From assembly GCF_008065095.1 (NCBI RefSeq), contig NZ_CP042911.1, positions 3,000,001-3,032,000 of the forward strand: a stretch of DNA of 32,000 nucleotides. The letters are read 5' to 3'. Every line of letters starts with the position of its first letter. The stretch's first letter is position 1. This document shows positions 8,030 through 28,689 of the stretch, one piece after another. The notes under the pieces were generated by a model. The model made no database searches, had not been told where the DNA came from, and saw only the letters and a list, made by a program, of their open reading frames with translations. The translations under genes and the position numbers were made by a program. Source of the DNA: Gemmata obscuriglobus. Lineage in GTDB: Bacteria > Planctomycetota > Planctomycetia > Gemmatales > Gemmataceae.

Positions 8030-8060
8030 GTACGCGCTCGGCGAATCACGTGCTTGACGG
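8030..8060. repeat. IRL of the IS66-type element
   Basis: GTACGCGCTCGGCGAATCACGTGCTTGACGG. Its reverse-complement partner is at 18535-18565. Confidence 0.8.
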
Positions 8061-8099
8061 GTAAGTTATGTTGGCGGCATCCGTTCCCTTCTTCGGAGG

Positions 8100-8450: not shown

Positions 8451-8806
8451 CCCTGCCCGCCACCACCAAGCTCTGGTTCGCGGCCGCCGTGGATTTGCGG
8501 CTCGGGTACGACGGGCTGGCCAACCTGGTCCGCACCCAGCTGTCCGGCGATCCGCTGAGCGGCCACCTGTTCGTGTTCACGAATCGGTCCGCGAACCGGG
8601 TCAAGGTGCTGTACTGGGGCGGCCACGGGCTGTGCCTCTGGTGCCAGCGGTTGGAGGCCGGGCGGTACCACTTCCCTGAAGCCACCGCCACCGGGATCGA
8701 ACTGACGGCGGCTCAGTTCGCCATGATCCTGGACGGCATCGACCTGTCCCGCGTCCGCCGGTTCAAGCGGTTCTCCGCCGCCCCGCCGCCACCTCGCGCT
8801 ACCTGA
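8444..8806 (+). CDS. tnpB: IS66 Orf2 (TnpB)
   Basis: GTG start. The sequence (M)LTLPATTKLWFAAAVDLRLGYDGLANLVRTQLSGDPLSGHLFVFTNRSANRVKVLYWGGHGLCLWCQRLEAGRYHFP is the conserved IS66 Orf2 pattern. Confidence 0.85.
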   Translation: MLTLPATTKLWFAAAVDLRLGYDGLANLVRTQLSGDPLSGHLFVFTNRSANRVKVLYWGGHGLCLWCQRLEAGRYHFPEATATGIELTAAQFAMILDGIDLSRVRRFKRFSAAPPPPRAT

Positions 8807-10396: not shown

Positions 10397-10420
10397 ACCT
10401 CGGCACCTCCCACGCTTCAA

Positions 10421-10465
10421 ACCCGCCGGTCCAAGGCCGGCGGGTCGCACTCCGTGCGTAACTAC
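10421..10465. repeat. Internal, diverged IRR-like copy at the end of the IS66 core
   Basis: Alignable to 18529-18565: shared ACCCGCC.GTC.A.GG and the G.GCGTA.C tip, with indels. The match to IRL is poorer than that of the distal copy. Confidence 0.5.
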
Positions 10466-10658
10466 CTCAGGGATACGACATCCGAACAGTTCGATATTCA
10501 GCCGACCGGGCGGACACATTCTGGCGCGTCAAGCGGGAGGACAACGCCGCCAGAGCACCGGTTCCGAGAAGGACGACGACCGACGGGGCAGCCCCGGCGG
10601 GGCGTCGGCTACCATGCCGCCCCCGCCCGACCTGAAGTTGCTTCGGACCCAACTCGGT

Positions 10659-11747: not shown

Positions 11748-11917
11748 TGTCACCTCCGCGAGGGTAGGAACCAACCGGCTTTCGATGCTGGCCGGCTGCA
11801 CCTCTCTAACGGACTTAGTCCTCGTCGGTGTTTCAAGTATTTGCATTCAAAAACCACACGGCCTTGGCGAATGGTACGCCAAGGCCGTGTGGTTTCGTTA
11901 GGTCGAACGGGTCTGAA

Positions 11918-13150
11918 TCACTCCGCGTTCGCGTAGTACAGTGGGCGGGTGCGGTTCTTGCGCTCGTCGCGGAATCCGAACAGCTTCAGCCCGTGGTACC
12001 GCCCCTCGAGGTCGAACAGAGGCCCGTACACCAGCTCGCCGCCCTCCTTGCGCGCGACCTGCCCGTTCGAGTGCATCGGCAGCAGGTACGGGCGGGCGTA
12101 AGAGTTCGACGGGGCCAGCGCCAGTCGCGGCTCACCGGGCTTGGCGTGCACCGAAGCGCGGATGTACAGATCGGTGCCGACGGCCTCGCGCACGACCCGT
12201 TCGACCAGCCCGAGGTCGCGCACGGCGTGGTTGTTCGCGGTGTACCCGACCGAGAGGTCGGCCGCCAGGAACCACAGGTCCTCGGCGTCCTTCGCCGCGA
12301 TGCTGCCGACTTGGTGCCCGCCGACGGCCCCGAACACCTGGACGGTGTGCTCGTAGGACCAGCCGCGGGCGCGGAGGTTGACGCTCGACACCAGGCTGTC
12401 CGCCTGAGACGCCAGCTGAGCCCGGAAGTCTTCGTTGCTGTTCGCCTGCTCGCGCACGTTGACGATCTCGTCGATAACGAACTCAAACCACCGGTCGTCG
12501 AGCACGTTGCGCGGAGACGCCAGCACGACGTCGAGCGCGCCGAGGAACGCCCGCGCGTCGTCTTGCAGGGTCTCCAGGAACAGGTCGGCCTGGCGGGCGT
12601 CCAACCCCGCGTCCGCCGAGTGCAGGTGCCCGTCAGCGACGAGCACGAGCCGGGTCGGCACGTCGGTCACCTCGGTCAGAGCGTCGGCGACCCCCTGGAG
12701 CACGTTGACGGACGTCCAGTCTGCGAGGTCGGGGGTGAGCGTACGGCCCGTCTTCAGCTCGTTCCCGATCTTGACGCCGCCGGTGATCATGGCCACGGTG
12801 AACTGCTTGTGGCTCAGCATCCCGTTGATCTTGTCGAGCAACCCGGTGCGGACGCCCAGATCGTCGAACAGGGTCGCTTTCACGCTCAGCGACGCGGCCT
12901 TGAGGACGGCCAGGGCGTTCTCCGCCGGGCTCAGGTCGGGCTTGCACTTTTTCAGGAGTTCGTCCTTCCAGTGCTCGCGCCCCTGGCGCAGTTCCAGGGT
13001 GAGGGACTGCAGGGCGTCCGGGGTCAGGACCGTCATCGGCGGCGGCGGGAAGGTGCGCCCTGCCTCGATCTGTTTGCACGCCTCCGGGAGGATGGACAGC
13101 TTGTCGAGGCGGGAGGCGTCGGACAGGGCGGACCGGAAGGGCTGGGCCAT
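11918..13150 (-). CDS. Hypothetical enzyme, tentatively DIT1/PvcA-like (isonitrile synthase family)
   Basis: Soluble 410-aa ORF. TPDLADW...PTRLVLVADGHLHSADAGLD and ...LYIRASVHAKPGEPRLALAP....LLPMHSNGQV resemble the PvcA patterns (pDlgEe..., ivSDGrvF.d, iRLSIH...K..i.l...tPWH). The call rests on recalled motifs only. Confidence 0.35.
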   Translation of the reverse strand: MAQPFRSALSDASRLDKLSILPEACKQIEAGRTFPPPPMTVLTPDALQSLTLELRQGREHWKDELLKKCKPDLSPAENALAVLKAASLSVKATLFDDLGVRTGLLDKINGMLSHKQFTVAMITGGVKIGNELKTGRTLTPDLADWTSVNVLQGVADALTEVTDVPTRLVLVADGHLHSADAGLDARQADLFLETLQDDARAFLGALDVVLASPRNVLDDRWFEFVIDEIVNVREQANSNEDFRAQLASQADSLVSSVNLRARGWSYEHTVQVFGAVGGHQVGSIAAKDAEDLWFLAADLSVGYTANNHAVRDLGLVERVVREAVGTDLYIRASVHAKPGEPRLALAPSNSYARPYLLPMHSNGQVARKEGGELVYGPLFDLEGRYHGLKLFGFRDERKNRTRPLYYANAE

Positions 13151-13345
13151 GATGACACTCGCGTCGGGTGGCAGTGAGCAGCCCGACCGACCTTCGGCCG
13201 GGCTACCCCGACTACGGGCGAGCGTATTTCCGTCGTTGCAGAGATGTTGCTGTGGTTTTTTTCAATGCCGTTAACCCATGCAGAGCAATGACTTAGAGGC
13301 CATGAGAACTTATTTTTCACCGCATCACTTTTTTCGTGCAACAAC

Positions 13346-13367
13346 CGCCCGTTCAGCGCCCGTTCAG
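13346..13367. repeat. Perfect tandem 11-bp direct repeat (CGCCCGTTCAG x2) in a divergent intergenic region
   Basis: Read directly in the sequence. It lies between the divergently oriented genes 11918-13150 (-) and 13504-14247 (+). Confidence 0.9.
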
Positions 13368-13503
13368 GGGGGTAGAGGGGAAATCAGCCAGCAAGAAAAC
13401 CGTCTTGGAATTTGACTTTCGCGAAATCTTCGCTGCAAGCCGAGCAGCTTCATGTGTTCGAAGGTTGGAACTGAGAAAGCCTCACCACGAAGGAGAACAC
13501 CCC

Positions 13504-14247
13504 GTGGCTGACTCCACCGGCCCGAACCAGGTGCCGATTAACGACGCCGTTAACGCGGGGCCTGACCCGCCTGTTCCGCTCGAATCGCCCCTCCCGCCGG
13601 GCTGGACCGACCAGCCGTGCGGTTGCTCGCGCCGGTGGCACTACGCCGACGAGGAGTACCGGTGCTTCGTTTACACGCGGTACACGATCTGCTCCCCGGC
13701 GTGTACCTGCGTCCTGACCACTGAAGTGGCGCGGGGCCAAGCAACGGCGCGCCGTCTGGGCCAACAAAGCGCAGACTGCGATGCCAGCGCAGCGCTGCAC
13801 GCCTGGAAAGTCCACCTCCTCTTCACCAACCGGAACTTCGACGAGCAGCAGGGAGATGATCAATTCAGCCGGTACCTCGCTCAGATTGCCTGGAACAGTG
13901 CGCGCGAGTGGTACCGCGGCTTCTACCACACTGACACCTTGATCGGTCCGATTTTGCCGGTCTCCTTCGTCAACCCCGACGACGGCTTGGCCGCCGGCGC
14001 CGTGCCGGAACCGGCCGACCAGGACGAGCCACAACGCCAGACCGACGAGCGCATCTGGATCGAAGAGCTCGCGGAACTGATCCCGAACGAATGGGATCGC
14101 AACGTCTTCCTCGCGCGCCACAGGGACGGCCTCTCGGCCGCGGAAATCGCGCAGCAAGCGGGCTGCGCCCCGTACGCCGTTTATCAGTCGCTGTGGGGCA
14201 GTTATGCGATTCTGCACGCCCGCCTTCTTGACCAGTGCGACGGCTAA
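13504..14247 (+). CDS. Atypical ECF-like sigma-70 family protein with Cys-rich N-terminal extension
   Basis: GTG at 13504 is preceded by GAAGGAGAA. Region-2-like FSRYLAQIAWNSAREWYR. Region-4-like DRNVFLARHRDGLSAAEIAQQAGCAPYAVYQSLWGSYAILHARL. The N-terminal part contains CGCSRRWHYADEEYRCFVYTRYTICSPACTC. Confidence 0.55.
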   Translation: MADSTGPNQVPINDAVNAGPDPPVPLESPLPPGWTDQPCGCSRRWHYADEEYRCFVYTRYTICSPACTCVLTTEVARGQATARRLGQQSADCDASAALHAWKVHLLFTNRNFDEQQGDDQFSRYLAQIAWNSAREWYRGFYHTDTLIGPILPVSFVNPDDGLAAGAVPEPADQDEPQRQTDERIWIEELAELIPNEWDRNVFLARHRDGLSAAEIAQQAGCAPYAVYQSLWGSYAILHARLLDQCDG

Positions 14248-14353: not shown

Positions 14354-15058
14354 GTGAACGACAACGAGCTGGATAGCAACGGCCGGGACTCGCCGAGCGA
14401 GCCAAAATACGAACCCAGGAACATTTCGCCCCTGCGGTACCTGTCCGTCCTCACGGGCGAATCGGAGTGGACGCCGGAGGAGCAGGACGCGATCGAACAA
14501 GACCCCGTTCTTCGGCAGAGGATCACTCGCCTGATGCTGGCGATGTACGCCCCTCTTCTGGGTCCCAAACCGACACCGCCCGATGCGAAGCCAAAGGGCC
14601 CCGTCGCCTGGCGCGAACCCAAAAAGTTCAAAGACGCTCCGTGTGAGGATGAGGTCGTGGCGGCCGGCCTCGGAGCCCACGCCGGTGCCGCGGCCGCGCC
14701 GAAAGAGGAGTTCACTTCCGCGTCTCGCGTGTGGACGGGAAAGCCGGCGTGGTCGAATCGCCCGTCCGATTGGCCTGAAGAACTGTCGGTGGTTTACGAA
14801 GTTCTTGACGGCGACCTGGAAGTCACCATCAAGGGGCTCGAGGACGTGAGCACGGCGCGTTACCAAGCGGTACTGGTCGCGGTCGGGAATCCCGCCATTC
14901 CCATCGATTCCTGGTTTCGGACGTCGAAGTTCAAGGCGCGTACGCTGCAACTCGACCAATCATCGAGAGCGGGCGCACAACAGCTGTACGTTTTTCTCGC
15001 CGAACGGCGGGGGAAGAAGACCGAGCTCGTCGCCCAGCCGATTCCCATTCGGCTCTGA
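14354..15058 (+). CDS. Hypothetical protein (no TM helix, Pro/Lys-rich linker)
   Basis: GTG start 7 nt after AAGGAG (14341-14346). Same strand as, and directly downstream of, the sigma-like gene. No recognisable domain. Confidence 0.55.
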   Translation: MNDNELDSNGRDSPSEPKYEPRNISPLRYLSVLTGESEWTPEEQDAIEQDPVLRQRITRLMLAMYAPLLGPKPTPPDAKPKGPVAWREPKKFKDAPCEDEVVAAGLGAHAGAAAAPKEEFTSASRVWTGKPAWSNRPSDWPEELSVVYEVLDGDLEVTIKGLEDVSTARYQAVLVAVGNPAIPIDSWFRTSKFKARTLQLDQSSRAGAQQLYVFLAERRGKKTELVAQPIPIRL

Positions 15059-15091: not shown

Positions 15092-15748
15092 ATGAACGTG
15101 CTCTCTCGCCTCGTGCTCGCGGTCGTCGCTGCGCTCTGGCTGCCTTTGGCCGCTCTGGCCGATGGAACCCAGCCGATGGCCGTCCAGGCCGGCTCCTGGA
15201 CGGTGGGCGAGAACGGCGTCAACGTCGACGCGGCGTGCTTGAAGAAGAAGTTGAAGGAGCCCACCGCCGGTACCTCGCTCAGCCTGCACGAGGGCAAGGT
15301 AGTCGTCGAGGTCCACGATGGCACCAAGTGGGTCGAGCACTCTACCCTCGCGGACGCTGTGACGAACGGTCACCTCGTGATCGAGGGAATCACGCAGGGC
15401 CGCCATCCCGACACGGGGGAAACCATCGGCCGGTTCGACGCGATCAAGATCAGGCCCGGTACTAAGCCGCTCGACGGGAATGTGCGGGTCACCTTCCGCG
15501 AACCGACGGTTTTCGGGGCCGAGGGCACGAAGGTCGCGGATTTCAAGGAAGCCGCCGGCTTGGTCGGTGACATCCAGCAGTACGCCAAGACCTTTGGCCT
15601 GCAGCCCAACGAGGCGCGGTTCATCGCCCAGCACGCCTACTGGGCTTTGGACCGGCAAGGCAAGGCGACTAAGGACGAGGTGGCGAAGCTGACGAAGATG
15701 AGCGAGGAAGAGTTCACCAAGTGGCTGATTAAGAACATGAAACCTTAA
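15092..15748 (+). CDS. Hypothetical secreted protein
   Basis: Signal-peptide-like N-terminus MNVLSRLVLAVVAALWLPLAALA/DG. It starts 33 nt after the preceding gene. Confidence 0.6.
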   Translation: MNVLSRLVLAVVAALWLPLAALADGTQPMAVQAGSWTVGENGVNVDAACLKKKLKEPTAGTSLSLHEGKVVVEVHDGTKWVEHSTLADAVTNGHLVIEGITQGRHPDTGETIGRFDAIKIRPGTKPLDGNVRVTFREPTVFGAEGTKVADFKEAAGLVGDIQQYAKTFGLQPNEARFIAQHAYWALDRQGKATKDEVAKLTKMSEEEFTKWLIKNMKP

Positions 15749-15825: not shown

Positions 15826-15894
15826 TTGCGACTTGAAAGCCTTTCAACTTGCTGTTCCTGGGCAGGTGCCTAGGTGCCTGGAGCCGGCTCAAAG

Positions 15895-18507
15895 ATGAAC
15901 TCGCACACCGACTCGCCGAACCAATCGGGTGAGAGTCACGAGGAAACCGACCAGTCGGCGCCTGACGAGGTCAGTACTCCGCCGTTTACTTTGCAACTTC
16001 GGCTCGCGCGGCAGGCACTCGCGAACAATAATCCAGAGGCCGCGCTCTGTTTCCTCTATCCGGTGTTTGGCCTCAAACCTCACTCGTTTCACCTCCGGCG
16101 TCCGTTCCTCCCGTCCCCATCCAACTTCTCGTCGAAGATCACGGAGGTTGTGCCGGAAGCCAGCGCACTTTTGTTGGTGGCGGCAGCGCAGACCGGCCAG
16201 ATTCGTGATGCCCTTGCGGTCGCGATGGCGGCAAACGGGCTGGTGCAGACCGTCAACGGCAACCACAAGGTCTTTTCGAGTGCGAGTGACTGGCTCGAGG
16301 TTTTGGAGAAAGTAAGCGACCTTAACCTGCAACGGGGAACCGCGGCTCGGCTTGCTCGCTGGGCGCGAGAAGGGGTTCGCGTTCTTCGCGAACTTAGCGG
16401 GGCTGAATTGATTGAGGACGTCGTCGGTCGGGACACTTTGAACGAGTGGTTCGAACAACCGCATCTCTTGATCGATCAACCTGCCAACGCCGAGGCACTC
16501 GCCGAATACTTGGCGGGCGAGCCGGTAACAGACCGGGAGATCGCCACGCTCGACATCGACGCCTTCATGCACGCGATTGAGCATCGTGATGGCTCTATCC
16601 CCGAAGGTGCGGTCGCCATCGCAATTGGACTGGCTCACGGCCTCAAAGCCCGCTCGTCTGAGGCACAGATTCCGGCGTTCATCAAGGGCGTGTTCGGCAA
16701 GGCCGTTACCGGCTCTTTCCTCGCGGAGCTCGAACGTCGGCGCGTTCAACCGGAACGCGCCGTGGAACTCGCGCTCTTCGCCCTCGAACACGACCAGGGG
16801 CTGACCGACGCGGGCCGGGCCGAGTTAACCGGGCGAGTGGTCGAACGTCTGGCCCAGCTTCCGCCGACTGCCCGCAAGTACCGCGAGCGGTTGCTCGGCC
16901 AGGCCGTTGAGTGGGCGCTCACGAACCAGGCCAGCGGGCATAGTCGGGAGAACTGGCCTGTGGTCGTGCTGTGCTTGGACCGCTTCCCCGGACCGCCCGC
17001 GCCGCGCGAGGCGTCCCCCGTCGTTGAGCTCGAGCGGGGTTCGGCTCCTATTACCGGACCAACGGACGAGGTCGGGGCGGACGTCTTGGCGGCTGGCGAA
17101 TCGGACGGGGCGCCCGGCCTGACGGTTTCGGCGGCCGGGGAAGAGGAACCGAGGGCCGTGGGCGCCTTTTCGTACGACGAGCTGAGCTCGGCCGCCCTGG
17201 AAGCTGAGCGTGCGGACGAGACGCTTCCGCGCCGCGGTGCGCTCGAGAACACGCCCCGGCTGCCAGGCGATGGCCACCGCACTCTGGGCGAAGTGGTTGA
17301 CCAAAGTGACCCTCGCCTCGCCTCGCTGCTCGGCCGCTATCCCGGTGACCCGGAGCGACCCGTCGTCTTGCTCGGTTTTCAGCCCGTCGGCCAACGCCTG
17401 CTCGTCTACACCGTCGAAGCGTCGGAAGGGAACCCACTTCGCTGGCGAGCGCGAGCTCTTGATGGCGCCGTGGACACGATCCAACGCGCCGTCGAAACCT
17501 TCGACGGCTCAATCGCGCGGGCCTGGCAGGATCATAAGCGCGCCGAGGTGCCCGACCGGAGCCGCGCGCTGGCCGACTCACTGCTCCACGAACTCGGCGC
17601 GCATCTCGCCGAGGTTGATGACCTGCTCAGCGCGGCGGTGTCCGACCTGTTGGCCGCCCACGATCCCGAGCCCAACATCCTGCTCACCGCCGCCGGCGCG
17701 GCCCAAGCCCTCCCGCTTGATTTGTTGACCGTCCGGTTGGCCGGCGGTTCGGAGCGGCCGCTCGTGCACTGCGGGAGCACCGTTCGTTGGACACCGGGGC
17801 TGGTGCTTCAGGAGCGAATGGACACCACCGGCAGGCGGTCGGGTGAGGGGACCGGCCGCTCGCTGGGGTGGCTCGCGTACCTGCCCGAACACGACCCAAA
17901 CGGTCGGTTCGGCGGCTTCTTCAGAGAGAAGGAGGTCGAGAGCGAAAAGGATCGCTGGTCGCCCGGGGCGAAGTTCCTCCAGCGAACGAAGGGCCGTGGG
18001 TGCCAAGGGACGCAGGCGACCGCAGGGAATCTGCGGTCGTATTCGGCTGGTCAGTTCAGCGACCTTCTCGTGTTGGCCCACGGCTGCTGGGACCGAGGCG
18101 CGGTCGTGCTTTGGGATGAGTTGGTGGATTCCCTTGGGGCGGCCCAGTTGGACACGTTGTTCCTGGTCTCGTGCACGATAGGCCGACTCGGGTGGTCAGG
18201 TGCTGACGAGCCGATCAGTCACAGCTTGTTGTCCAACATTCTCGAGCAGGGGTCGGTCTCGCACCTGCTAGCCTTCCGCCACACGATTCCCGATACACCG
18301 GCGGTAAAGTTCGCTCTCCGAGTGCGCGAAGATACGGGTCGCGATCTGGCGCTCGCGCGGAGCGAGTTGTTAAAGTCTTGGTTCCCAAATGGGAGCGCGG
18401 CAACGAATGTTTGCCACCAACACCAAGTGAACACAGGTGATGCGTTCGAACGTTTCGTTGGTGCGGTCTCGATTGCGTACTCGGCAAAACTGGAACCGGT
18501 CCGGTGA
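15895..18507 (+). CDS. Large CHAT-domain (caspase-like) protease with ~560-aa helical N-terminal region
   Basis: The C-terminal ~300 aa show the CHAT pattern: ILLTAAGAAQALPLDLL, the His in LLVLAHGCW (codon 18079-18081) and the Cys in LFLVSCTIG (codon 18172-18174), then GSVSHLLAFRHTIPD. ATG at 15895, with an alternative GTG at 15874. Confidence 0.75.
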   Translation: MNSHTDSPNQSGESHEETDQSAPDEVSTPPFTLQLRLARQALANNNPEAALCFLYPVFGLKPHSFHLRRPFLPSPSNFSSKITEVVPEASALLLVAAAQTGQIRDALAVAMAANGLVQTVNGNHKVFSSASDWLEVLEKVSDLNLQRGTAARLARWAREGVRVLRELSGAELIEDVVGRDTLNEWFEQPHLLIDQPANAEALAEYLAGEPVTDREIATLDIDAFMHAIEHRDGSIPEGAVAIAIGLAHGLKARSSEAQIPAFIKGVFGKAVTGSFLAELERRRVQPERAVELALFALEHDQGLTDAGRAELTGRVVERLAQLPPTARKYRERLLGQAVEWALTNQASGHSRENWPVVVLCLDRFPGPPAPREASPVVELERGSAPITGPTDEVGADVLAAGESDGAPGLTVSAAGEEEPRAVGAFSYDELSSAALEAERADETLPRRGALENTPRLPGDGHRTLGEVVDQSDPRLASLLGRYPGDPERPVVLLGFQPVGQRLLVYTVEASEGNPLRWRARALDGAVDTIQRAVETFDGSIARAWQDHKRAEVPDRSRALADSLLHELGAHLAEVDDLLSAAVSDLLAAHDPEPNILLTAAGAAQALPLDLLTVRLAGGSERPLVHCGSTVRWTPGLVLQERMDTTGRRSGEGTGRSLGWLAYLPEHDPNGRFGGFFREKEVESEKDRWSPGAKFLQRTKGRGCQGTQATAGNLRSYSAGQFSDLLVLAHGCWDRGAVVLWDELVDSLGAAQLDTLFLVSCTIGRLGWSGADEPISHSLLSNILEQGSVSHLLAFRHTIPDTPAVKFALRVREDTGRDLALARSELLKSWFPNGSAATNVCHQHQVNTGDAFERFVGAVSIAYSAKLEPVR

Positions 18508-18534
18508 GGCCCATTCGCTGGTGAAGGTACCCGC

Positions 18535-18565
18535 CCGTCGAGGGTGTGATTCACCGGGCGCGTAC
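18535..18565. repeat. Distal IRR of the IS66-type transposition unit
   Basis: CCGTCGAGGGTGTGATTCACCGGGCGCGTAC. Its reverse complement matches IRL at 25 of 31 positions. It is followed immediately by the TSD copy. Confidence 0.8.
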
Positions 18566-18573
18566 TGTACAGG
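18566..18573. repeat. Target-site duplication, right copy (TGTACAGG)
   Basis: Identical to 8022-8029. Confidence 0.85.
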
Positions 18574-19676
18574 GCCGGTTCGACGGCCATCAACTCGCGG
18601 CACACGCCCGCCGTGATCGCGCACGCGCCTTCAGCCCCTCGCTTGAGGAAGCCCCGCACCCCGGCCCGGAGCCACCCGAGGTAGGTCTGTCGGAACCCGC
18701 GCCGCGTCAGCGTCCCGTCCCGCACCCGCTTCCACTGGTCGAGCAGGATGTCGGCGTAGGTCAACAGGTCCTCGCCGACCCCCGACCCGCCGTTCCCCCG
18801 GTCGATCATGGCCTGGAAGTCTCGTCGGAGGTGCGCCCAGCAGACTTGGCGCTCGCACACAGGGAGGTGGTCGTAGGCCGAGTATCGGTCCGTGGTCAGC
18901 ACTCCGGGATGGCCCGCGATCAACTCGCCCAGCACCTTCCGGGCACGGGACAGGCGGACCAGGAACACGGTCACGCGGGCGGTCACCGCGGCCCACAGCC
19001 AGCCCCGCTTGCGCCCCTCCGGCCACCCGGTCTCGTCCACGTTCGCGGGCTTCCCAACGACGTAGGCACGGGCCTCCTCAACGACCGGCCCCAAGGCGAC
19101 CGCGGCCTTCCGCTGGAGGCCGCATACGGCGGCCGGGCTGATCGGTACCCCGGACAGGTCCTGGCACAGCCGCGCGACGCCCCGCTTGCCGATCCGGTAC
19201 GCCCCGCTGAGGAGCGCGCACACCGCCTGGACCCGCGGCCCGTACCCGCCTCGGGCATCACCCGGTAGGGGCGGGCGGTTGATACGCCCGCAGTTCGGGC
19301 ACGCGAGCCGGTGCCGACGATATTCGGTCACCTGCGGGCAAACCGGCGGTAACTCGATGATCTGGTGGCGGAGCGGTTGCGCATCACCCCCGGAGAGCGC
19401 GTGTGCGCACCGGTCACAGGTGCTCGGCCGCAACTCGATGACGTTGTCCGCGGGCAGGTCGGAACGGGAGTGCTTAGGGTGCCCCGGCTGGCCGCCCTTG
19501 CGCCTGCTGGATGGGGCCTTCGGCGGGGCGGCCTTGACGTGCGGCGGGTCGGACGACGGGGGCTTTGAGGAGTTCGTCGAGTTCTGCCCGAGCCGGGCTT
19601 CGAGGTAACGGATGTATGCCTGCACCGCCGGGGGAAGCGCGTCGAAGACCTCAGGTGGTAGCGTTGGAGATGCCAT
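18566..19676 (-). pseudogene. 5' fragment of the same single-ORF IS66-family (ISBst12-like) transposase gene
   Basis: MASPTLPPEVFDALPPAVQAYIRYLEARL..NSSKPPSSDPP..RRKGGQPGHPKH..CDRCAHAL..ACPNCGR..ANVDETGW..LTTDRYSAY..VCWAHLRRDF..CRELMAVEPALY, where homology stops at the insertion point. The rest of the 498-aa track ORF is read-through into the IRR and the antisense strand of the CHAT gene. The right IS end is approximately 19700-19730 and is not resolved. Confidence 0.8.
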
Positions 19677-19750
19677 GCCGCAGAAGGAATACGGAGCAAG
19701 ACTCACAGCGGCCACAACCGTGAACGCCTACACCAGGAGATAAATAGCTG

Positions 19751-20033
19751 AGACTTTAGTACTACTCCGTTACTTCGCCACAACTAATTAAATTGTCGCG
19801 ATTTATGGCGATCTACACCTACAGGTCCGTGCCCCCGCAATGGGTTCAAATCCCAGCGATTCTGGCTAGTCCGTTCACGAGAGCAGCAAACATTCCGCCG
19901 TGGCAGTGAGCATTCCATTTGACTCAAGTCCAGATCCTACAAGATGTTCCGTCAAGGTGCATTCCGGAGGGGTGTGCATAACACGTTGTAAAACAAGCAG
20001 TTGCGGCGAGGTAACGGAGTAGTATTAGAGGCT
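19751..20033. repeat. IR-bounded ~280-bp non-coding element (MITE-like)
   Basis: Terminal inverted repeats: 19757-19779 TAGTACTACTCCGTTACTTCGCC and 20005-20028 GGCGAGGTAACGGAGTAGTATTAG. They share a 14-bp perfect core (TACTACTCCGTTAC) with 2-3 mismatches overall. The interior is visibly AT-richer than its surroundings and has no ORF. Confidence 0.5.
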
Positions 20034-20074
20034 CTGAGGGGCCGGCAATGCACGCCGCCGGCACCTGGAATTGC

Positions 20075-21475
20075 CTAGCGGATTACCCTGGCCACCGCAT
20101 CCAGTGCCTCTTCTGGTACGAAGAGACGATCCGTCTCTGGCAAGGGCTGGGAAAGTGTTCTGAAGCTGTCATCGTCCCGAATAGGGGCCGCCCCTCCTGA
20201 GTCATCTACAAAATAACCCCATTCGCTCGGCGCCTTCGATAACAATGAAAACTTCGGGTGGTCCCGGACGAGATAAGATTCTGGCTCCTTGAAGCCACTA
20301 TCGATAAGCGCCTTGTTGATCTTCGGATACGCCTCGGGTGATTTCAGAAAACTACTAATCTGTTCAGAAGATCGCGGAACAGATTTGAATAAGGTGCGGG
20401 TTCGTATCCTCTTGGCGAGATCGACCACGATGGGATCCGCTCCATCAGCCTGAGCCACAATTTCGACAAGCACGTGCAAGGCGAAGTCATCAGCGGACAA
20501 CAGGGCTTGAAGTGTCACCACTTTGCCGGCGACCATGTCCATCAAAGGCCCAACGATTCGGTCGCGAGAGAAAGCCGCGAATTGTCCGTCGCGCACGACG
20601 GTTTTTAAGCGGCGCAGAAAGAGCGCCACCATCCCCTCCGCCGCCCTGACGGTGCGGTGGTAGTACACGGCTTCGTACATGGCACGTCGTGCCACCAAAA
20701 AATGCTCGACCACGCGTCTCGATTTGGCCCGATCGAATCCCACGACAAGTGTCTTTTCGTTTGTTGTCCCCAGTGCGCACGTCGAGATCAACCGACTGAG
20801 GTCATATCCCCCAAACGTAACGCCGCACTGCTGGCTGTCACGGCGAAGGAAATCGCTGCGGTCGACGTCGATATCGCTATCCAGTAGTCGCGGCAGGTAG
20901 GGCAGGTGATACTCGCCAAGCAAAAATGCACCGATCCGTTCAGCCATCCCGCGCTCGTAAGATTCGAGCATTTGGTGCAGTTCGCCCTCGGGCCAAGCGA
21001 GCAGAGCCTGTCCCACGAGAACGTGCCACTTCAGCCTGCGCCCTCCCACGGCGCCTGCTGCGGCTGGAAGCCCGAGCCCCTGTCTCCAATTACCCTCGTC
21101 GTAGTCCTCACCAATGATCTCGCGCTCCCATGCGTGCGAGAGGGGCCCGTGCCCGAGGTCGTGAAACAGCGCCGCGAGTGCGAAGTCCCTGATCGCCACC
21201 TCGTCGGGGAGCAGAAACGGTGTGATCGAGTCGCGCCCTACTTCTTGAATGTGCCTGCCAAAGAGTACCGCGAGGTAGGCAGCGCCGATTGAATGAACGA
21301 GTCGAGAGTGCTCGCCGCCGGGGAACACTAGATGCACAAGCCCGAGCTGGCGGATGTGGCGGAGCCTCTGAATTTCGCGGGTACGAAGCACCTCCACGAT
21401 GAGCGTCTCCATGCCCCTAAATTCCATGAGGCCGTGGACACTGTCTTGGATACGCCTTACACGACTCGACCGCAT
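20075..21475 (-). CDS. SAMHD1-like HD-domain phosphohydrolase (dNTP triphosphohydrolase-like, COG1078 type)
   Basis: IQDSVHGLMEF...REIQRLRHIRQLGL..FPGGEHSRLVHSIGAAYLA...ALFHDLGHGPLSH...LDSDIDVDRSDFLRRDSQQCGV. The H..HD..D metal ligands are all present. Confidence 0.8.
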   Translation of the reverse strand: MRSSRVRRIQDSVHGLMEFRGMETLIVEVLRTREIQRLRHIRQLGLVHLVFPGGEHSRLVHSIGAAYLAVLFGRHIQEVGRDSITPFLLPDEVAIRDFALAALFHDLGHGPLSHAWEREIIGEDYDEGNWRQGLGLPAAAGAVGGRRLKWHVLVGQALLAWPEGELHQMLESYERGMAERIGAFLLGEYHLPYLPRLLDSDIDVDRSDFLRRDSQQCGVTFGGYDLSRLISTCALGTTNEKTLVVGFDRAKSRRVVEHFLVARRAMYEAVYYHRTVRAAEGMVALFLRRLKTVVRDGQFAAFSRDRIVGPLMDMVAGKVVTLQALLSADDFALHVLVEIVAQADGADPIVVDLAKRIRTRTLFKSVPRSSEQISSFLKSPEAYPKINKALIDSGFKEPESYLVRDHPKFSLLSKAPSEWGYFVDDSGGAAPIRDDDSFRTLSQPLPETDRLFVPEEALDAVARVIR

Positions 21476-21478
21476 AGC

Positions 21479-22807
21479 TCACCCCAGCAATTCAATAAGC
21501 GCATCGATCTCGGATTCTCTGCCTCGGGCCGCCCTAGAGAATGTCCGTAACTGCCTTAGCCGTTCTCTGAGGCGCTGCTTACTCGCCGCCGGCATTCTGA
21601 GCACTGCGTTGGTGCGCGGCAGGTGCTGCAAGAGCTGTTCGAGTTCCGTCTCGATCGCCACGCTCCCGCTACCGATCCCGGACAAAAAGGCGCCCAACTT
21701 CTGACCACACAGATGAACGAGTTCCTTCGCGGTCGCTCGCCTTTCTGGAGCGGCTACCAGCGCCCGCGCCAAGACCGCCCGAAGAGGGTCTGGCACCGAG
21801 TCCAGCCTGACGCGTTGCTCCCACTGGGTGCGCATCCGGTCTCGGATTTTTCCCTCGAATGCTTTTCTCTCAGCGGGGGTCGATGTGCGTGGAACTCTCT
21901 CATTGTCGTCGATGAAGAGAAAACTCCCAGTCACCGCCTTGTACACCGTTGCCCCTAGCGCCCAGACATCGAACTTTCTGGGCTCTGAGGGGTAGGGGCC
22001 GTCTTCAAAAAGTTCCGGCGCGCGCGTGCGAAGACTGCCGGTGACCGACAGTTCGTGTGTGAAATCGCAGGACGTGCGGCAGATGCCGAAATCAAGCAGA
22101 ATGTACGAACCGTCCTTCTGCCCGATGTTGTCCGGCTTGATGTCCCCGTGAACGAGTGCCAGTTCGCCGTGCAGGTACGCTATGGCCTGGGCGATGTCGT
22201 ACAAAAGGTTCGCGGCCTCGTGGGTGCCATTGGCACGCCAGGCGTCATTGAGGGCGAAGGGTAGCTTTTCTTCAACGAGAAACTTGTCGCCTTTGACGTT
22301 CTGCAGCGGATGTGTGGCGATGATGTTCGGGTGGCGCATCGCGAGCGGGTGCGACTGAAGTTCTCGGTCTAGAATGAGCTCCTGCTGGGTGCGGTTCCCG
22401 AGTAACCGTTTGAGTACAACTTCGCGCTGCGCCTGCTTCCACTTCGCGTGGTAGACCCTCTTTTGGCTCCCCGTTCGAGACATCGCGGAGATAATCGTGA
22501 ACCCTTCGGGTGGAATGAGGTTGATGCAATCAATGACGGCATCAGGATCGTTTTGGTGCGCGCGGATGAATTTAACAATAAAATTACAATCAATCGGAGA
22601 CTGAGGACCGTTGCTGAGCTGCTCAATGAGTTTGCTCAAAAGGCTCGCTGCATTCTCATCCGTCCAGGGATGATCGAGAGCGGTAGCCATCGCCGCCCAA
22701 TCTTCATCTGACAGTTTTGCGAGAGGATGAAACGTATCGTCAATCCTCGCACTCTCGTCGAGAAGCGATTCGAGTACTGATTTGGTTTTTTCCCCCAGGC
22801 CAGCCAT
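21479..22807 (-). CDS. Ser/Thr protein kinase with ~100-aa unknown N-terminal region and helical C-terminal tail
   Basis: EVVLKRL (Lys), LVHGDIKPDN (catalytic loop), LLDFGICR (DFG), LRTRAPELF (APE). There is no classical Gly-rich loop. I chose ATG 22807 because the 150-aa upstream extension of the track ORF runs into the IS. The stop is 3 nt from the HD gene ATG. Confidence 0.8.
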   Translation of the reverse strand: MAGLGEKTKSVLESLLDESARIDDTFHPLAKLSDEDWAAMATALDHPWTDENAASLLSKLIEQLSNGPQSPIDCNFIVKFIRAHQNDPDAVIDCINLIPPEGFTIISAMSRTGSQKRVYHAKWKQAQREVVLKRLLGNRTQQELILDRELQSHPLAMRHPNIIATHPLQNVKGDKFLVEEKLPFALNDAWRANGTHEAANLLYDIAQAIAYLHGELALVHGDIKPDNIGQKDGSYILLDFGICRTSCDFTHELSVTGSLRTRAPELFEDGPYPSEPRKFDVWALGATVYKAVTGSFLFIDDNERVPRTSTPAERKAFEGKIRDRMRTQWEQRVRLDSVPDPLRAVLARALVAAPERRATAKELVHLCGQKLGAFLSGIGSGSVAIETELEQLLQHLPRTNAVLRMPAASKQRLRERLRQLRTFSRAARGRESEIDALIELLG

Positions 22808-22853
22808 TTTATGCTGCCCTGTGGTGAAGCTGCTACGTTGGTTGCTGCCAGTC

Positions 22854-22862
22854 GTCACGAGA
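22854..22862. repeat. Target-site duplication, left copy (GTCACGAGA)
   Basis: Identical 9-mer at 24596-24604, each abutting a terminal IR. Confidence 0.85.
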
Positions 22863-24595
22863 GAGGTCACGCCACGGTTTGCAGTAGGCCTTGCGGTCCT
22901 CGGGGCACGGGATAGGAAAAGCGCGGGGCGATTTCGCCGCAACTCTCGTGCGGGGCGAGTCATGAGCACACCGCGTTTCACGGCCGAGGAACTCGACCGC
23001 CTTCGAGCACTGGCGGCGGAGTGGGGCAAAATCGTTTCCAAGCGGGCGTTCGGGGACGACGGGCCGGGATTGGACGTGGACTTCCGGACGATGGAGCAGA
23101 TCGCCACCGCGGCGGCACAAGGGCTCACCGAAGGTGCCCTCCAGCAGATGCTCCACCAGCAGGCCCGGAAGGTGCCCGAACAGGTTCCGTGTCCGGTGTG
23201 TGGCGAGCCGTGCCCGACCCGACCACACACCCGCACCCTGGCGGCCCAAGGGGCCACGGTTCAACAGGCCGAACGGATCGCCCATTGTCCCGCCTGCCGG
23301 CGGGACTTTTTCCCCCCTGCGGCTGGCCCTCGGGCTGGATGAGCACGGGTACAGTTCCTCGGTCGTTCAACGCATCGTCACGGCCGCCGCCCGGTTCTCC
23401 TCGTTCCGGGATGCCGCCGAGGCGGTGCGGATGACCGGGGTCACGATCAGCGACAACCAGGTGCGCCGACTGGCTCACGAGGTCGGGCACGAGTTGATCG
23501 CGCGGCGCGATCGGAAGGCGGTCGAGCACCGGCGCCGCCAGTTAGAGCCGCGGACCGCGGTGGTGCCCGTGGCCGTGGTGGTCGAGGTCGATGGGGGGCG
23601 CATCCGCACCCGCGCCGCGGGCGCCGGCCCGGGTGTTCACGAGGCCCAGAACAAGGAGGACAAGGTGGCGTGCCTGGCCACCCTGAGTGGCCCCACGTTC
23701 GCCACGGACCCGTGCCCCGAGCCGCCCGAGTCGTTCCGCTGCCCGCGCCGGGTGCGGCGCCTGGTGCAGCAGATGAAGGGCCCGGCGGGCGAGGTCGCGC
23801 CCCCGGAAACCGTGGACGAATCGACGCCCCCGGTGCCGGCCGGGGAACCCGAAGGGGCCGAGCGGTGGTCCCCGACGCGGTTGGTGCGGACGTGCGTGGC
23901 GAGCCTGGAGGGGAGTACCGCGTTCGGCCCGATGATGGCCGCCGAGGCCCAGGAGCGGCGCTTCTATGAGGCCCCGCGTCGGGCGTTCGTAGCCGACGGT
24001 CAGGCGTACAACTGGACCATCTGGCGCGGGTACTTTGGTGCGTTCGAGCCGATCGTGGATTTCCTGCACGCGGTGTGTTACGTGTTCTCGTCGGCCGCGG
24101 CCGTGAGCCCCGATGAGGCGTCGGGTTGGTCCCAATACGTGGCCTGGATGCGCGCGTGCTGGCAGGGTCGCGTTGGAGAAGTGCTCACCGAACTGGATCA
24201 GTGGCAGGCGCGGCTGGGTGAGCCCCCACCGGGTGAGGCGGCGACGGCCGAGGAGCGCCGGGACCCGCGCCGGGTGGTGGCGCACGCGCGGACCTACTTG
24301 GGGAACAATCGGGATCGCATGGCGTACCCGCGATACCGGCGCAACGGGCTACCGACGACGAGTAGCTTGGTCGAGTCACTGGTGGGCGAGATCAACGCCC
24401 GGGTGAAGAGCACACAGAAGCATTGGACCCGGCCCGACGGTGCCGAATCGATCCTGCAACTGCGGGCCGCCGTGCTGAGCCAAGACGACCGGCTCCCACG
24501 GTTCTTCGCCGAACGGCCGGGCTCCTCGTTCCGCAAACGAGATACACTCTGCCACAAATCAGAGGGTGCCACAGCACAAACCGTGGCGTGACCTC
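22863..24595 (+). mobile_element. ISKra4-like insertion sequence (1733 bp)
   Basis: Perfect 19-bp terminal IRs: GAGGTCACGCCACGGTTTG at 22863-22881 and its reverse complement at 24577-24595. A 9-bp TSD flanks them. There is a single transposase gene whose stop codon lies inside the IRR. Confidence 0.85.
22962..24591 (+). pseudogene. ISKra4-family transposase, frameshifted in a T5C6 homopolymer tract
   Basis: N-terminal part: ..CPVCGEPC..HCPACRRDFFPP. The protein continues in the +1 frame as LRLALGLDEHGYS.., and one fewer C at 23312-17 would fuse the two parts. Downstream motifs: VVEVDGGRIRTR, FVADGQAYNWTIW, IVDFLHAVCYV, YLGNNRDRMAYPRYRRNGLPTTSSLVESLVGEINARVK. Confidence 0.75.
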
Positions 24596-24604
24596 GTCAC
24601 GAGA
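24596..24604. repeat. Target-site duplication, right copy (GTCACGAGA)
   Basis: Identical to 22854-22862. Confidence 0.85.
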
Positions 24605-24863
24605 GCGGGCGCATCGTCAGCCATGTCTGCCCCCTGCGGGGAATTCGCGGGTTAACCCGATTCTGATGATTGTATCGATGGCTGAAAGCATCAGAAATGT
24701 GGCCACACGTACAGTATCACTGTGTGTGTGGCCCCTTCGTTGCCGTGCATCCGTGCGTCGCGCACTGTTTACTAAACACGAAATTGCTCCCAAACGAACG
24801 TTGCAACCTGCGTGGCCTCACCCAGAGGCGAGGTGACGCAGACGCGAACGCACTCGGCGAGAC

Positions 24864-25755: not shown

Positions 25756-25786
25756 TTGACACGAATACACGACTTCGTGTATTCGT
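25756..25786 (+). promoter_or_regulatory. Putative ars promoter -35 (TTGACA) overlapping a perfect 12-2-12 palindromic operator
   Basis: TTGACA at 25756-25761. ACGAATACACGA-CT-TCGTGTATTCGT at 25761-25786. It ends 17 nt upstream of the arsR ATG, which has the RBS GGGAGAG. Confidence 0.7.
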
Positions 25787-25803
25787 TAATCAGGGAGAGC
25801 GCG

Positions 25804-26226
25804 ATGAGCACCAAGAAGACCGCAAAAGTTCCGGAGCCGAAGGCTGACGAGTGCTGCGACACCCGACCGGAGCTGAAGGACCGGCCGCTGTTGTCGTTCG
25901 TCGAGGCGGTCAAGGTGATGGCGCTTTTTAAGGTGCTCGCCAACGACACCCGGCTCCGGCTCTTGCACCACATCGTGCGGAGCGGAGAGGCGACGGTGAC
26001 GGACCTGGCGAAGACGCTCGGCATGAAGCCGCAAGCGGTTTCGAACCAGCTCACGCGGCTCTCGGATACGGGCATGATCCTGTCGCGCCGCGACGGGAAC
26101 AACGTGTACTACCGGGTCGTGAACGTGTGCGTGGGACCGCTCCTGGATCTGGCCCTCTGTTTGATGGAAGACCCGGGAGCGAACTGCGCGGTGGAGAAGG
26201 ATAACGATGAGCAAGACGATAACTGA
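25804..26226 (+). CDS. arsR: ArsR/SmtB-family metalloregulator
   Basis: Winged-helix core [64 protein letters not shown]. It is the first gene of the ars cluster. Confidence 0.85.
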
Positions 26227-27067
26227 TGCGGTACGGGACAAATACGCGGCGGTCGCAGCAAGCGACTTGAGCGGGACGCACAGTGGTGTCCACGCCGTGG
26301 CCGAGGCGTTCGGGTATTCGGCCGAGGAGCTCGCGAGCATCCCGGCGCAAGCCAACATGGGGCTGTCCTGCGGCAACCCGACCGCGACAGCGAACCTGCG
26401 CCCGGGTGAGGTCGTTGTTGATCTCGGCTCCGGCGGCGGGCTCGACGTGTTCCTCGCTTCGAAGAAGGTCGGGCCGACCGGGCGTGCGATCGGGATCGAC
26501 ATGACCCCGGAGATGGTCGCGCGTGCGACCACTAACGCGCAGCGACAGGGCTTTTCGAACGTCGAGTTTCACCTGTCAACGATCAACCAGATGCCGCTCG
26601 ACAGCGACTCGGCCGACTGCGTCATCTCGAACTGTGTGATCAACCTGGTTCCGGACAAGGCGGCCGTGTTCCGCGAAATCTTTCGAGTCCTCAAGCCCGG
26701 CGGGCGCGTGGCGATCTCGGACATCGCCCTGAAAAAACAACTGCCGCCCGAGGTCGGAAACGATCTGATGGCGTACATCGGGTGCGTGGCGGGGGCCATT
26801 CCGGTTGAGGAGTACGAGAGCGGTCTCAAAGCGGCCGGGTTCTCTACCGTTCAGATCGTGGACACGAAAAAAGACCTGAACGCGTACGCGAAGGTGGAAG
26901 GGCAGGCGGCGTGCTGCTCCCCGGCGATGGACGAGGCGACGTCGTCCTGCTGCACCCCGCAGGCCCAGGGCACGGCGAGTGTGCACGGCGGCCTCTCGCA
27001 CCTCACCGCCAAGTACGACATTAACGAGTTCGCAGCCAGCGTTCAGGTGTACGCGGTCAAGTCGTAG
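26207..27067 (+). CDS. arsM: Arsenite S-adenosylmethionine methyltransferase
   Basis: [20 protein letters not shown] (SAM motif I), [44 protein letters not shown]. It overlaps arsR by 20 nt. Confidence 0.85.
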
Positions 27068-27172
27068 CGGTACTCGCGCCATCGAATCACTGTGGTCCGC
27101 ACGAACACGTGCCCGTGTGGCGCGATAGGAGCGTGCGCGCGAAACCAAGCATATTTTCAGGGAGACAGACAC

Positions 27173-27598
27173 ATGGGTGAGGGGAAGAAGCGGGTGCTGT
27201 TCGTCTGCGTGGAGAACGCCAACCGGAGCCAGATGGCGGAAGCGTTCGCGCGGATCCACGGCGGCGACGCTGTGGAAGCGTTCTCGGCGGGGAGCCGCCC
27301 TTCGGGGAAGGTGAACCCGCGCGCGATCCAGTTCATGAAAGAGCGCGGGTACGATCTCGCCGCGCACGGCTCAAAGGCGCTCGACGAGTTCAACGGACGG
27401 GCCATTGATGTGGCCGTGACGATGGGCTGCGGGGACGCGTGCCCCTTGGTCCTGGCTGACCGGCGCGAGGAGTGGCAGATCCCGGACCCGAAGGAGCTCC
27501 CAGATGACGAGTTCCGCAACATCCGCGACCTCATCGAGGGCAAGGTCAAAACGATGCTCGAGGCGCTCGGTGTGCCGATAAAGGGAGGTGCGGCATGA
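27173..27598 (+). CDS. arsC: Arsenate reductase, low-molecular-weight phosphatase family
   Basis: P-loop VLFVCVENANRSQMAE (CX5R), SAGSRPSGKVNPRAIQFMKERGYDL, VTMGCGDACP. ATG at 27173. The stop overlaps the acr3 ATG (ATGA). Confidence 0.8.
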   Translation: MGEGKKRVLFVCVENANRSQMAEAFARIHGGDAVEAFSAGSRPSGKVNPRAIQFMKERGYDLAAHGSKALDEFNGRAIDVAVTMGCGDACPLVLADRREEWQIPDPKELPDDEFRNIRDLIEGKVKTMLEALGVPIKGGAA

Positions 27599-28689
27599 GC
27601 GCAAGTGCGACACAGACGCCGCCCGAGACGGCGGCCCCGAAACGGATGAGCGTTTTCGAACGGTACCTGACGGTGTGGGTCGCGCTCTGCATGGCGCTCG
27701 GCGTGGCTATTGGGCGAACGCTCCCGGGGGCCACGCACGCGCTTCGCGGCCTCGAGTTCGGCTCCGGCAGCCCGATCAATGTGCCCATCGCACTGCTCAT
27801 CTGGTTGATGATCGTGCCGATGATGATGAAGATCGATTTCGCGGCCGTCGCGGGCGTCACCCGCCGCCCAAAGGGGCTCGCGGTAACACTGCTCGTGAAC
27901 TGGCTGGTCAAGCCGTTCGGCATGTTCGCGCTCGGGTGGGTGTTCTTCCAGGGCCTGTTCTTGCCGCTCATCGGAGATGAACTCGCGCGGCAGTACACGG
28001 CGGGCGTGGTCATCCTCGCGGCCGCCCCGTGCACGGCGATGGTGTTCGTGTGGAGCTACCTCACCGACGGGGACCCGGCGTACACGCTCGTGCAGGTCGC
28101 GGTCAACGACCTCATCATGCTGGTGCTGTTCGCGCCGATCGTGGGCTTCCTGGTCGGTGTTGCTGGGCTCGCGGTCCCCTTTAACGTCATCCTGCTCTCG
28201 GTGGGCGTGTTCATCGTTGTGCCGCTGACCGTTGGGGTGCTGCTTCGCACGGTGCTCGTACGTGCAAAAGGACGGCACTGGTTCGAGCACGGCTTTTTGC
28301 CGAGGTTCCAGCCGGCCGCGATCGGTGCGCTGCTCGGAACGCTCGTGCTCATCTTCGCGTTCCAGGCGGACAACATCCTGTCGAACCCGCTGCACGTCGC
28401 GCTCATCGCGGTCCCGATCCTGATCCAGGTCTACTTCAACGCTTCGCTGACCTTTGGGCTGATGTGGCTCGTGCGGGTGCCCCACAACGTTGCGGCACCG
28501 GGGGCTCTCATCGGGTCGAGTAACTTCTTCGAGCTGGCCGTGGCCACCGCGATCGCCTTGTACGGCCCCGAATCGGGAGCCGCGCTTGCGACCGTCGTGG
28601 GCGTACTGGTGGAAGTGCCGGTGATGCTCAACGTGTGTGCGATGTGCAACCGGAGCCGCAGCTGGTTCGATTCGAGAAGTATCGCCTGA
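27595..28689 (+). CDS. acr3: ACR3-family arsenite efflux permease
   Basis: MSVFERYLTVWVALCMALGVAIG..., LIWLMIVPMMMKIDF, ILAAAPCTAMVFVWSYLT, SNFFELAVA. These are classic ACR3 motifs. Confidence 0.9.
   Translation: MSASATQTPPETAAPKRMSVFERYLTVWVALCMALGVAIGRTLPGATHALRGLEFGSGSPINVPIALLIWLMIVPMMMKIDFAAVAGVTRRPKGLAVTLLVNWLVKPFGMFALGWVFFQGLFLPLIGDELARQYTAGVVILAAAPCTAMVFVWSYLTDGDPAYTLVQVAVNDLIMLVLFAPIVGFLVGVAGLAVPFNVILLSVGVFIVVPLTVGVLLRTVLVRAKGRHWFEHGFLPRFQPAAIGALLGTLVLIFAFQADNILSNPLHVALIAVPILIQVYFNASLTFGLMWLVRVPHNVAAPGALIGSSNFFELAVATAIALYGPESGAALATVVGVLVEVPVMLNVCAMCNRSRSWFDSRSIA

Follow-up and report, generated by a model that had tools for sequence, protein, structure and literature searches.

Nucleotide depletion is an established antiviral strategy, used by SAMHD1 in humans and by dGTPases, dCTP deaminases and Clover in bacteria. 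Human SAMHD1 and Enterococcus faecalis EF1143 are tetrameric, allosterically regulated deoxynucleoside triphosphate (dNTP) triphosphohydrolases, and SAMHD1 is regulated by cyclin-dependent kinase (CDK) phosphorylation at T592. To our knowledge, restraint of a bacterial dNTPase until infection is known only for Clover. As a mechanism, dNTP depletion has been proven to be antiviral in bacteria (Tal et al.; Clover, PMC12265719) as well as in humans. Clover is an anti-phage system that balances defence against self-toxicity and consists of the dGTPase CloA, which has an H/E catalytic dyad, and the nucleotidyltransferase CloB, CloA being regulated by dTTP and by p3diT, a nucleotide made by CloB (PMC12265719). 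A January 2026 review points out that bacteria may still harbour unrecognized SAMHD1-like proteins with a role in defence (PMC13276650). Here we analyse a window of 32,000 nucleotides from Gemmata obscuriglobus (contig NZ_CP042911.1, positions 3,000,001 to 3,032,000; all coordinates below are those of this window) which contains, on the minus strand, a gene for a eukaryotic-like Ser/Thr protein kinase directly upstream of a gene for an HD protein of the SAMHD1/EF1143 type. The two genes are a conserved, tightly coupled unit that has co-diversified across many phyla, and in Gemmata the kinase gene is interrupted by an insertion sequence (IS).

The HD gene (20075-21475, minus strand) is intact and encodes a protein of 466 aa, 100% identical to GobsT_25780. 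Pfam recognizes HD and HD_assoc_2 domains in it (PF19276, 32.4 bits against a cut-off of 23.1), and searches against the PDB retrieve EF1143 (2e-30 with phmmer, 3.6e-45 with a profile) and human SAMHD1 (approximately 1e-18 and 1e-30, respectively). In a 20-member family alignment the metal ligands H61, H105-D106 and D205 are invariant, as are H114, H151, R58, R263 and Y271, and H109 is at least 90% conserved. On the basis of our alignments, the metal ligands correspond to SAMHD1 H167, H206-D207 and D311; likewise, H109, H114 and H151 correspond to H210, H215 and H233, and R58, R263 and Y271 to R164, R366 and Y374. The length of the protein, the complete H..HD..D ligand set and the SAMHD1-type motifs reported in a first-pass annotation of this DNA are thus borne out by Pfam, by the family alignment and by the alignments with EF1143 and SAMHD1. 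Moreover, an AlphaFold2 model (predicted local distance difference test score, pLDDT, 86.4; predicted template modelling score, pTM, 0.86) matches EF1143 structures over the full length in Foldseek (4lrl, 2o6i and 3irh; TM 0.73-0.81 over some 470-480 aligned columns) and SAMHD1 with a TM of about 0.6-0.67. At the allosteric site, the equivalents of SAMHD1 Q142, R145 and D330 (Q36, R39 and D225) are conserved, the equivalent of D137 is R31, and that of R372 is not conserved. Both by sequence and by fold, this protein belongs to the SAMHD1/EF1143 family, and its predicted activity is that of a dNTP triphosphohydrolase. It is not a Dgt-type dGTPase: the TIGR01353 model gives 19.3 bits, below its threshold of 152.35, and the PADLOC dGTPase model (PDLC02374) matches the HD motif only, at E=0.002 and 15.5 bits, which does not make it a member. 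Grouping with housekeeping dGTPases at a fixed chromosomal position, which the first-pass annotation would have taken as refuting its proposal, is therefore not observed.

The main body of the kinase gene (21479-22862, minus strand) comprises native codons 11-467, and the kinase of the window is 100% identical to C1280_20555. The Pfam Pkinase domain (PF00069) covers residues 113-365 of the open reading frame (ORF) with an E-value of 8e-26 and 91.4 bits, against a cut-off of 31.7. Across 46 homologues, K133, E149, H220-G-D222, K224, N227 and D239-F-G are invariant, and most positions of the T-G-S-L-R-T-R-A-P-E segment are invariant too, the rest being at least 90% conserved (P264-E265 belong to the former, A263 to the latter). 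The canonical GxGxxG glycine-rich loop is absent from the family, which has instead an invariant G113-S-Q-K116-x-V118 motif with a single glycine. The early description of a kinase with catalytic Lys, HGD, DFG and APE motifs and no Gly-rich loop is confirmed. Its sequence places the protein among the Hanks-type (eukaryotic-like) Ser/Thr protein kinases, with a glycine-rich loop that is degenerate. In the AlphaFold2 model (pLDDT 89.8, pTM 0.80), six helices form an N-terminal domain (1-96), which is followed by a canonical core and by further helices at the C-terminus (384-441). The best Foldseek matches are the kinase domains of Aurora, PAK and CaMKII, and the solved structures align to the core only, not to the N- and C-terminal helical regions. 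Searching the N-terminal 100 residues against 1.84 billion representative proteins retrieved family members and fragments only, with no second architecture that might hint at what the domain senses. Similarly, the PADLOC models for PD-T4-6 and mad6 match the kinase (1e-21 to 1e-26) in the core only, the scores against NCBIfam MAD6 (35.5 bits, cut-off 460) and PglW (23.5 bits, cut-off 990) are low, and a PHROGs search of the pair found generic HD and kinase families only. Automated annotation might mislabel the kinase as PD-T4-6.

At the junction between the two genes, the kinase stop codon (TGA, 21481-21479) is followed by 'gct' and by the HD start codon (ATG at 21475), and the 3-nt spacing noted at first reading is therefore exact. 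The arrangement is far from being peculiar to Gemmata, and the refuting condition named in the first-pass annotation, a pairing confined to one genome, clearly fails. A scan with an HD profile of one genome per species from 185,579 species kept 18 close HD relatives (42-53% identity), and upstream of every one of them, on the same strand and ending at the HD start, is a kinase homologue of full length; these kinases are 30-45% identical over a stretch that includes the N- and C-terminal regions. Where both ORFs could be delimited, in 17 genome loci, the kinase stop lies no more than about 20 nt from the HD start, or overlaps it, and the two genes are probably translationally coupled. Among the 62 more distant HD relatives kept by the scan (31-38% identity, mostly from Myxococcota-type metagenome-assembled genomes, MAGs), none has the kinase. 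The SAMHD1-like HD proteins of these loci (L019-L080), some 420-460 aa long, form a separate, unpaired clade and also lack both insertions specific to the paired clade: one at about 121-140, with invariant W130, L134 and G135, and another at about 421-440, with invariant A429. S231 is invariant in the paired clade only and lies on the helix bearing the SAMHD1 allosteric-site residues D330 and R333, a candidate phospho-site that we offer as a lead and nothing more.

The reverse search leads to the same pairing. Twenty close relatives of the kinase were recovered from metagenome contigs, three of which run to the contig edge, and in 17 of the 18 assessable cases the HD gene is directly downstream. 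The exception, L098 (region 1386-6947), has no HD gene and its kinase has had the C-terminus replaced after approximately residue 410. The adjacent genes encode a ThiF (E1-like) protein, a Prok-E2_E protein and a pair of helix-turn-helix (HTH) and M78 (ImmA/IrrE) proteins, an arrangement that suggests a cassette replacement within an island; by eye, the N-terminal region of the ThiF protein is JAB-like, and Pfam finds no such domain in it. Over 24 distinct pairs, the matrix of pairwise identities of the kinases correlates with that of the HD proteins at r=0.85, a value reached by none of 2000 Mantel permutations, and mean identity is 53% for the HD protein and 47% for the kinase. L011, L014 and L018 show apparent frameshifts or truncations, which were not counted as decay because these are MAG assemblies, in which indel errors are possible. 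There is no conserved third gene among the annotated neighbourhoods, since the neighbours differ at every locus.

The Gemmata copy is interrupted near its 5' end. An ISKra4-like IS of 1733 bp (22863-24595, plus strand; NCBIfam transpos_ISKra4, 6.9e-40) sits inside the kinase coding sequence, after codon 10. At its two ends (22863-22881 and 24577-24595) it carries terminal inverted repeats of 19 nt, perfectly matched and found nowhere else in the window, and on both sides it is flanked by the 9-bp target-site duplication GTCACGAGA (22854-22862 and 24596-24604). The far end of the IS is directly abutted by the minus-strand sequence ATG GCT GAC GAT GCG CCC GCT CTC GTG AC. This is the displaced native 5' end of the gene (24596-24624), with codons 1-10 (MADDAPALVT), and past it lies the native upstream region. 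Excision of the IS together with one copy of the duplication yields a single ORF of 467 aa which starts with MADDAPALVTTGSNQRSSFTTGQHKMAGLGEK and has one terminal stop, while control excisions with 8 or 10 bp in place of the 9-bp copy give 21 or 8 stop codons. The closest homologue of the kinase, P0122 (74% identity), is also of 467 aa and starts with MADEESATVVAVGNRRGKLSSGQHKIAGLGEK. Because IS excision restores the ORF and the restored N-terminus is collinear with that of P0122, the native start of the kinase is placed at 24624-24622. Two other candidates were rejected: the ATG at 22807, taken as the start in the first-pass annotation, is native codon 26 and aligns with an Ile in P0122, and the ATG at 22963, the start of the deposited 494-aa protein, is inside the IS. 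In this 494-aa 'hypothetical protein', IS sequence is fused to the kinase gene minus its first ten codons. The IS severs the native promoter and translation start from the operon and leaves both ORFs otherwise intact, which is consistent with a recent insertion. Since the kinase gene is interrupted, the Gemmata copy of the operon is probably crippled. The transposase of the IS is itself divided between two frames that overlap (22782-23342 and 23134-24591). Only the second is matched by the NCBIfam ISKra4 model, the match beginning at model position 100; the split is due either to a frameshift mutation or to programmed frameshifting. A scan for sigma-70 promoters between 19700 and 25000 gave 0 sites, and terminator-like sites in the same interval did not exceed the shuffled expectation, both scans being uninformative for a planctomycete.

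The pair is accessory and horizontally transferred. Judged by the titles of the sequence records, its hosts include Acidobacteriota (Bryobacteraceae, Terracidiphilus, Holophagales, Thermoanaerobaculia and Ca. Angelobacter), Planctomycetota (Gemmata, Tepidisphaeraceae, Phycisphaerae and Scalindua) and others as distant as Longimicrobium, Saccharimonadales, Caldithrix, Bacteroidetes, Pseudomonadota, Solirubrobacterales, Fimbriimonadaceae and archaeal MAGs. In the window, the GC content of the operon is 0.55-0.61, compared with 0.62-0.72 in its surroundings and 0.72 in the ISKra4-like IS. Neighbourhoods were surveyed in eight Pfam-annotated contexts and, with PADLOC, in 123 ORFs flanking 25 further loci. 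Defence or mobile-element genes adjoin the pair in about five of the eight contexts: a CBASS (patatin and SMODS) with an integrase and a methylase; Vsr, a HinfI endonuclease and a C5 methylase; HNH genes with a methylase and HATPase_c_3; an AAA+ protein with an S8 protease, a DCD-family protein, MT-A70 and an integrase; and ArdC-N with a 1615-aa SNF2/ResIII helicase, RepL and ParA. PADLOC recognized PsyrT, DndB, DpdF, PbeA and type II methylases among the 123 flanking ORFs. The pair is not evidently phage-borne, as a scan of IMG/VR with the HD profile returned 48 pattern matches and 0 relatives. The plasmid and phage collections contain no DNA match, their only protein matches being EF1143-like genes, 25-30% identical, without the kinase clade.

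How does this unit compare with the systems that most resemble it? The HD protein is like EF1143 and SAMHD1 in that it aligns directly with them in sequence, conserves their metal-ligand and catalytic residues and matches their fold over its full length. Unlike SAMHD1, it has no SAM domain, and it carries an Arg at the guanine-reading D137 position; unlike both, its clade has the two specific insertions and a kinase in the same operon. Neither EF1143 nor the distant unpaired HD clade has such a partner, and the kinase family has so far been found almost only with the HD clade of the window. With Clover it would share the two-gene design, a dNTPase effector with a dedicated regulatory enzyme, but the partner is here a protein kinase and the HD protein falls in the SAMHD1/EF1143 clade; no Pol-beta-type nucleotidyltransferase is conserved beside the pair in the eight annotated contexts, so it is not a Clover system. 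Like the defensive dGTPases of Tal et al. 2022 (the PADLOC type 'dGTPase'), it is predicted to deplete deoxynucleotides and some copies lie near restriction-modification genes; those dGTPases, however, are single genes, and the HD protein of the window fails both the PADLOC and the TIGR01353 models. Finally, the kinase has a Hanks-type core like Stk2, PD-T4-6, Mad6 of the methylation-associated defence system (MADS) and PglW of bacteriophage exclusion (BREX), all examples of kinase signalling in phage defence. The similarity to them is nevertheless limited to the core, the N- and C-terminal domains are specific to the family of the window, and those kinases have no HD dNTPase partner. The first-pass annotation knew of no named system of this composition, and we likewise found none: PADLOC 2.0 has no model for the kinase-HD pair, and the literature yielded no description of a defence pair made of a kinase and an HD/SAMHD1-like protein, although subscription journals were poorly covered and this absence is not proof.

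We propose that the pair is a kinase-regulated dNTP-depletion defence against phage or mobile elements, a proposal to which we give roughly an even chance. A more specific version, in which the antiviral activity of a SAMHD1-clade dNTPase is switched by the operon-encoded eukaryotic-like Ser/Thr kinase with its helical domains as an infection sensor, is put forward more tentatively, at somewhat short of even. The HD enzyme would be the effector, depleting dNTPs; the family-specific helical domains of the kinase would sense infection; and the kinase would act as the switch, perhaps by phosphorylating the HD protein or by restraining it until infection. The catalytic residues of both proteins are intact, and the kinase is the sole conserved partner of the HD gene and is found almost only beside it. 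Effectors that deplete dNTPs are toxic and need a switch, and Clover, in which a dNTPase effector is paired with a regulatory enzyme, is a precedent. A kinase-gated dNTP-depletion module had already been suggested in the first-pass annotation: what stands of it is a module that is conserved and accessory, for which a role in defence is plausible, whereas gating by the kinase is suggested by the adjacency of the genes and by analogy with SAMHD1. In the simplest model the kinase would control the HD enzyme by phosphorylating it, and this could be either activating or inhibiting. The defence role itself is one that we infer.

Several observations weigh against this proposal. Three of the eight Pfam-annotated contexts look like housekeeping, the commonest Pfam families among the neighbours are metabolic, and ten large neighbours gave weak PADLOC matches or, in most cases, none. 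The defence-island signal is real but moderate and not universal. Because the Gemmata copy is disrupted by the IS, it says nothing on the activity of the system in Gemmata. The operon encodes no phosphatase, and a reversible switch would therefore need a host enzyme. The kinase could equally target phage or host proteins, and S231 is at most a candidate phospho-acceptor in the HD protein.

Other explanations for the pair have to be considered together with defence. It could serve in the physiological control of dNTP pools, with the kinase relaying signals of growth state or stress to a dNTPase, which would lower dNTP levels in cells that are not replicating, by analogy with SAMHD1 and CDK in eukaryotes or with Dgt in Caulobacter. 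Such a role would accommodate the several housekeeping-like contexts, the fact that most neighbours are not defence genes, and hosts which for the most part are taxa of soil and peat that grow slowly and have many Ser/Thr kinases; a cell-cycle role for a bacterial dNTPase is documented (PMC12186491). A core regulator, however, would be expected at a stable locus with vertical inheritance, and what is observed instead is a patchy distribution across phyla, a GC content atypical for the host, no fixed chromosomal position, copies that are disrupted by an IS (Gemmata) or truncated (L098), and restriction-modification, CBASS or integrase genes that often adjoin the pair. We consider physiological control unlikely, although it is the strongest of the alternatives. 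That a kinase of an abundant planctomycete type and an HD gene came to lie side by side by chance, between mobile elements, might be imagined from an IS-rich locus in a genome which, like those of its relatives, encodes many Ser/Thr kinases. The same kinase family, N- and C-terminal regions included, is nonetheless found directly upstream at each of the 18 genome loci, with more cases in metagenome contigs, and the two proteins have co-diversified, so that the probability of this explanation is negligible and we count it as refuted.

It is also conceivable that the roles are distributed differently between the two proteins. The kinase could be the effector or toxin, of the abortive-infection type represented by Stk2 or PD-T4-6, phosphorylating host or phage proteins, the HD protein then being another, independent effector, a partner resembling an antitoxin or a substrate-independent accessory. 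Single-gene defence kinases do exist (reviewed in PMC13276650), the PADLOC models of PD-T4-6 and Mad6 match at 1e-21 to 1e-26, and L098 keeps its kinase without an HD gene. These matches are nevertheless limited to the generic core, with MAD6 and PglW scores far under their cut-offs; the HD gene stands beside the kinase in 17 of 18 assessable cases, the exception having lost the C-terminus of its kinase; and an HD protein with a full catalytic set, and conserved more strongly than the kinase (53% versus 47%), does not resemble a passive partner. An effector kinase is in our opinion improbable. Slightly lower still is the probability we assign to an HD protein whose substrate is not dNTPs but, for instance, NTPs, a signalling nucleotide or a nucleic acid, in which case the module would be a kinase-linked signalling or nuclease system. 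The chemistry of the HD superfamily is diverse (PMC8177086), and the two insertions of the paired clade (about 121-140 and 421-440) and the changes at the allosteric site, such as R31 in place of SAMHD1 D137, would fit a different substrate. On the other hand, the SAMHD1 metal ligands, the catalytic histidines and the equivalents of R164, R366 and Y374 are all invariant, and the entire fold superposes on that of EF1143, a dNTPase.

The surroundings of the operon in Gemmata are rich in mobile elements. Forty nucleotides past the HD stop there is a 285-bp element resembling a miniature inverted-repeat transposable element (MITE; 19750-20034), with 36-nt imperfect terminal inverted repeats whose arms are 86% complementary, a GC content of about 0.5 and one copy in the window. 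Next to it lies an IS66-family transposase ORF (18219-19715, minus strand; NCBIfam transpos_IS66, 1.5e-62; Pfam DDE_Tnp_IS66, zf-IS66 and DUF6444) whose C-terminus is probably degenerate, the NCBIfam match spanning model positions 1-312 of 387 only. These two elements do flank the operon on one side, as originally described; the ISKra4-like IS thought to bracket it on the other is the one that lies within the kinase gene. At lower coordinates in the window there are a phage-integrase-family gene (6015-7037, minus strand), an IS66 Orf2 (TnpB; 7754-8806) and an IS66 DDE transposase (9137-10396), and the integrase together with the IS66 copies, including the remnant at 18219-19715, points to a recombination-prone genomic island.

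The window opens within a gene for a prokaryotic Argonaute (pAgo) of class II, of which it encodes the C-terminal 434 aa (PADLOC pAgo_II, 2.2e-186); as only model positions 309-724 are matched, the gene runs off the window start. Its end is overlapped by the start of a gene for an associated effector of 481 aa (1261-2706; Aga_Helical-REase, 1e-90) with a C-terminal bSEFIR/TIR domain. The pAgo and its effector (1-2706) are a known type of defence and lie 17 kb from the kinase-HD pair. In between, the ORFs at 10380-11936, 11828-13177, 13336-14247, 14354-15058, 15092-15748 and 15874-18507 have no match in Pfam or PADLOC; the last of these, of 877 aa, has none in PHROGs either, and shows a C-terminal H...C pattern which we take to be reminiscent of CHAT-like proteases. 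Just past the displaced 5' end of the kinase gene, judging from the translations, there is an apparent arsenic-resistance cluster (25756-28689) with a small HTH regulator, an S-adenosylmethionine-dependent methyltransferase, an arsenate reductase of the low-molecular-weight phosphatase type and an ACR3-like permease.

Recognition of the IS-kinase fusion in the deposited 494-aa protein corrects the annotation of the Gemmata locus. The pair would also offer a compact and testable system: it has only two genes, its catalytic mutants are clear, and dNTPs provide a read-out that can be measured. Nucleotide depletion as a strategy is already known; what would be new here is a depletion system with a protein kinase as its regulator and a true member of the SAMHD1 clade as its effector. 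If the proposed defence role is correct, the pair would constitute a new two-gene immune system whose enzyme, unlike the known defensive dGTPases, aligns directly to SAMHD1. Its control by a protein kinase would echo the control of SAMHD1 by CDK, and would be a precedent among prokaryotes, perhaps even an evolutionary forerunner, of the phospho-regulation of SAMHD1.

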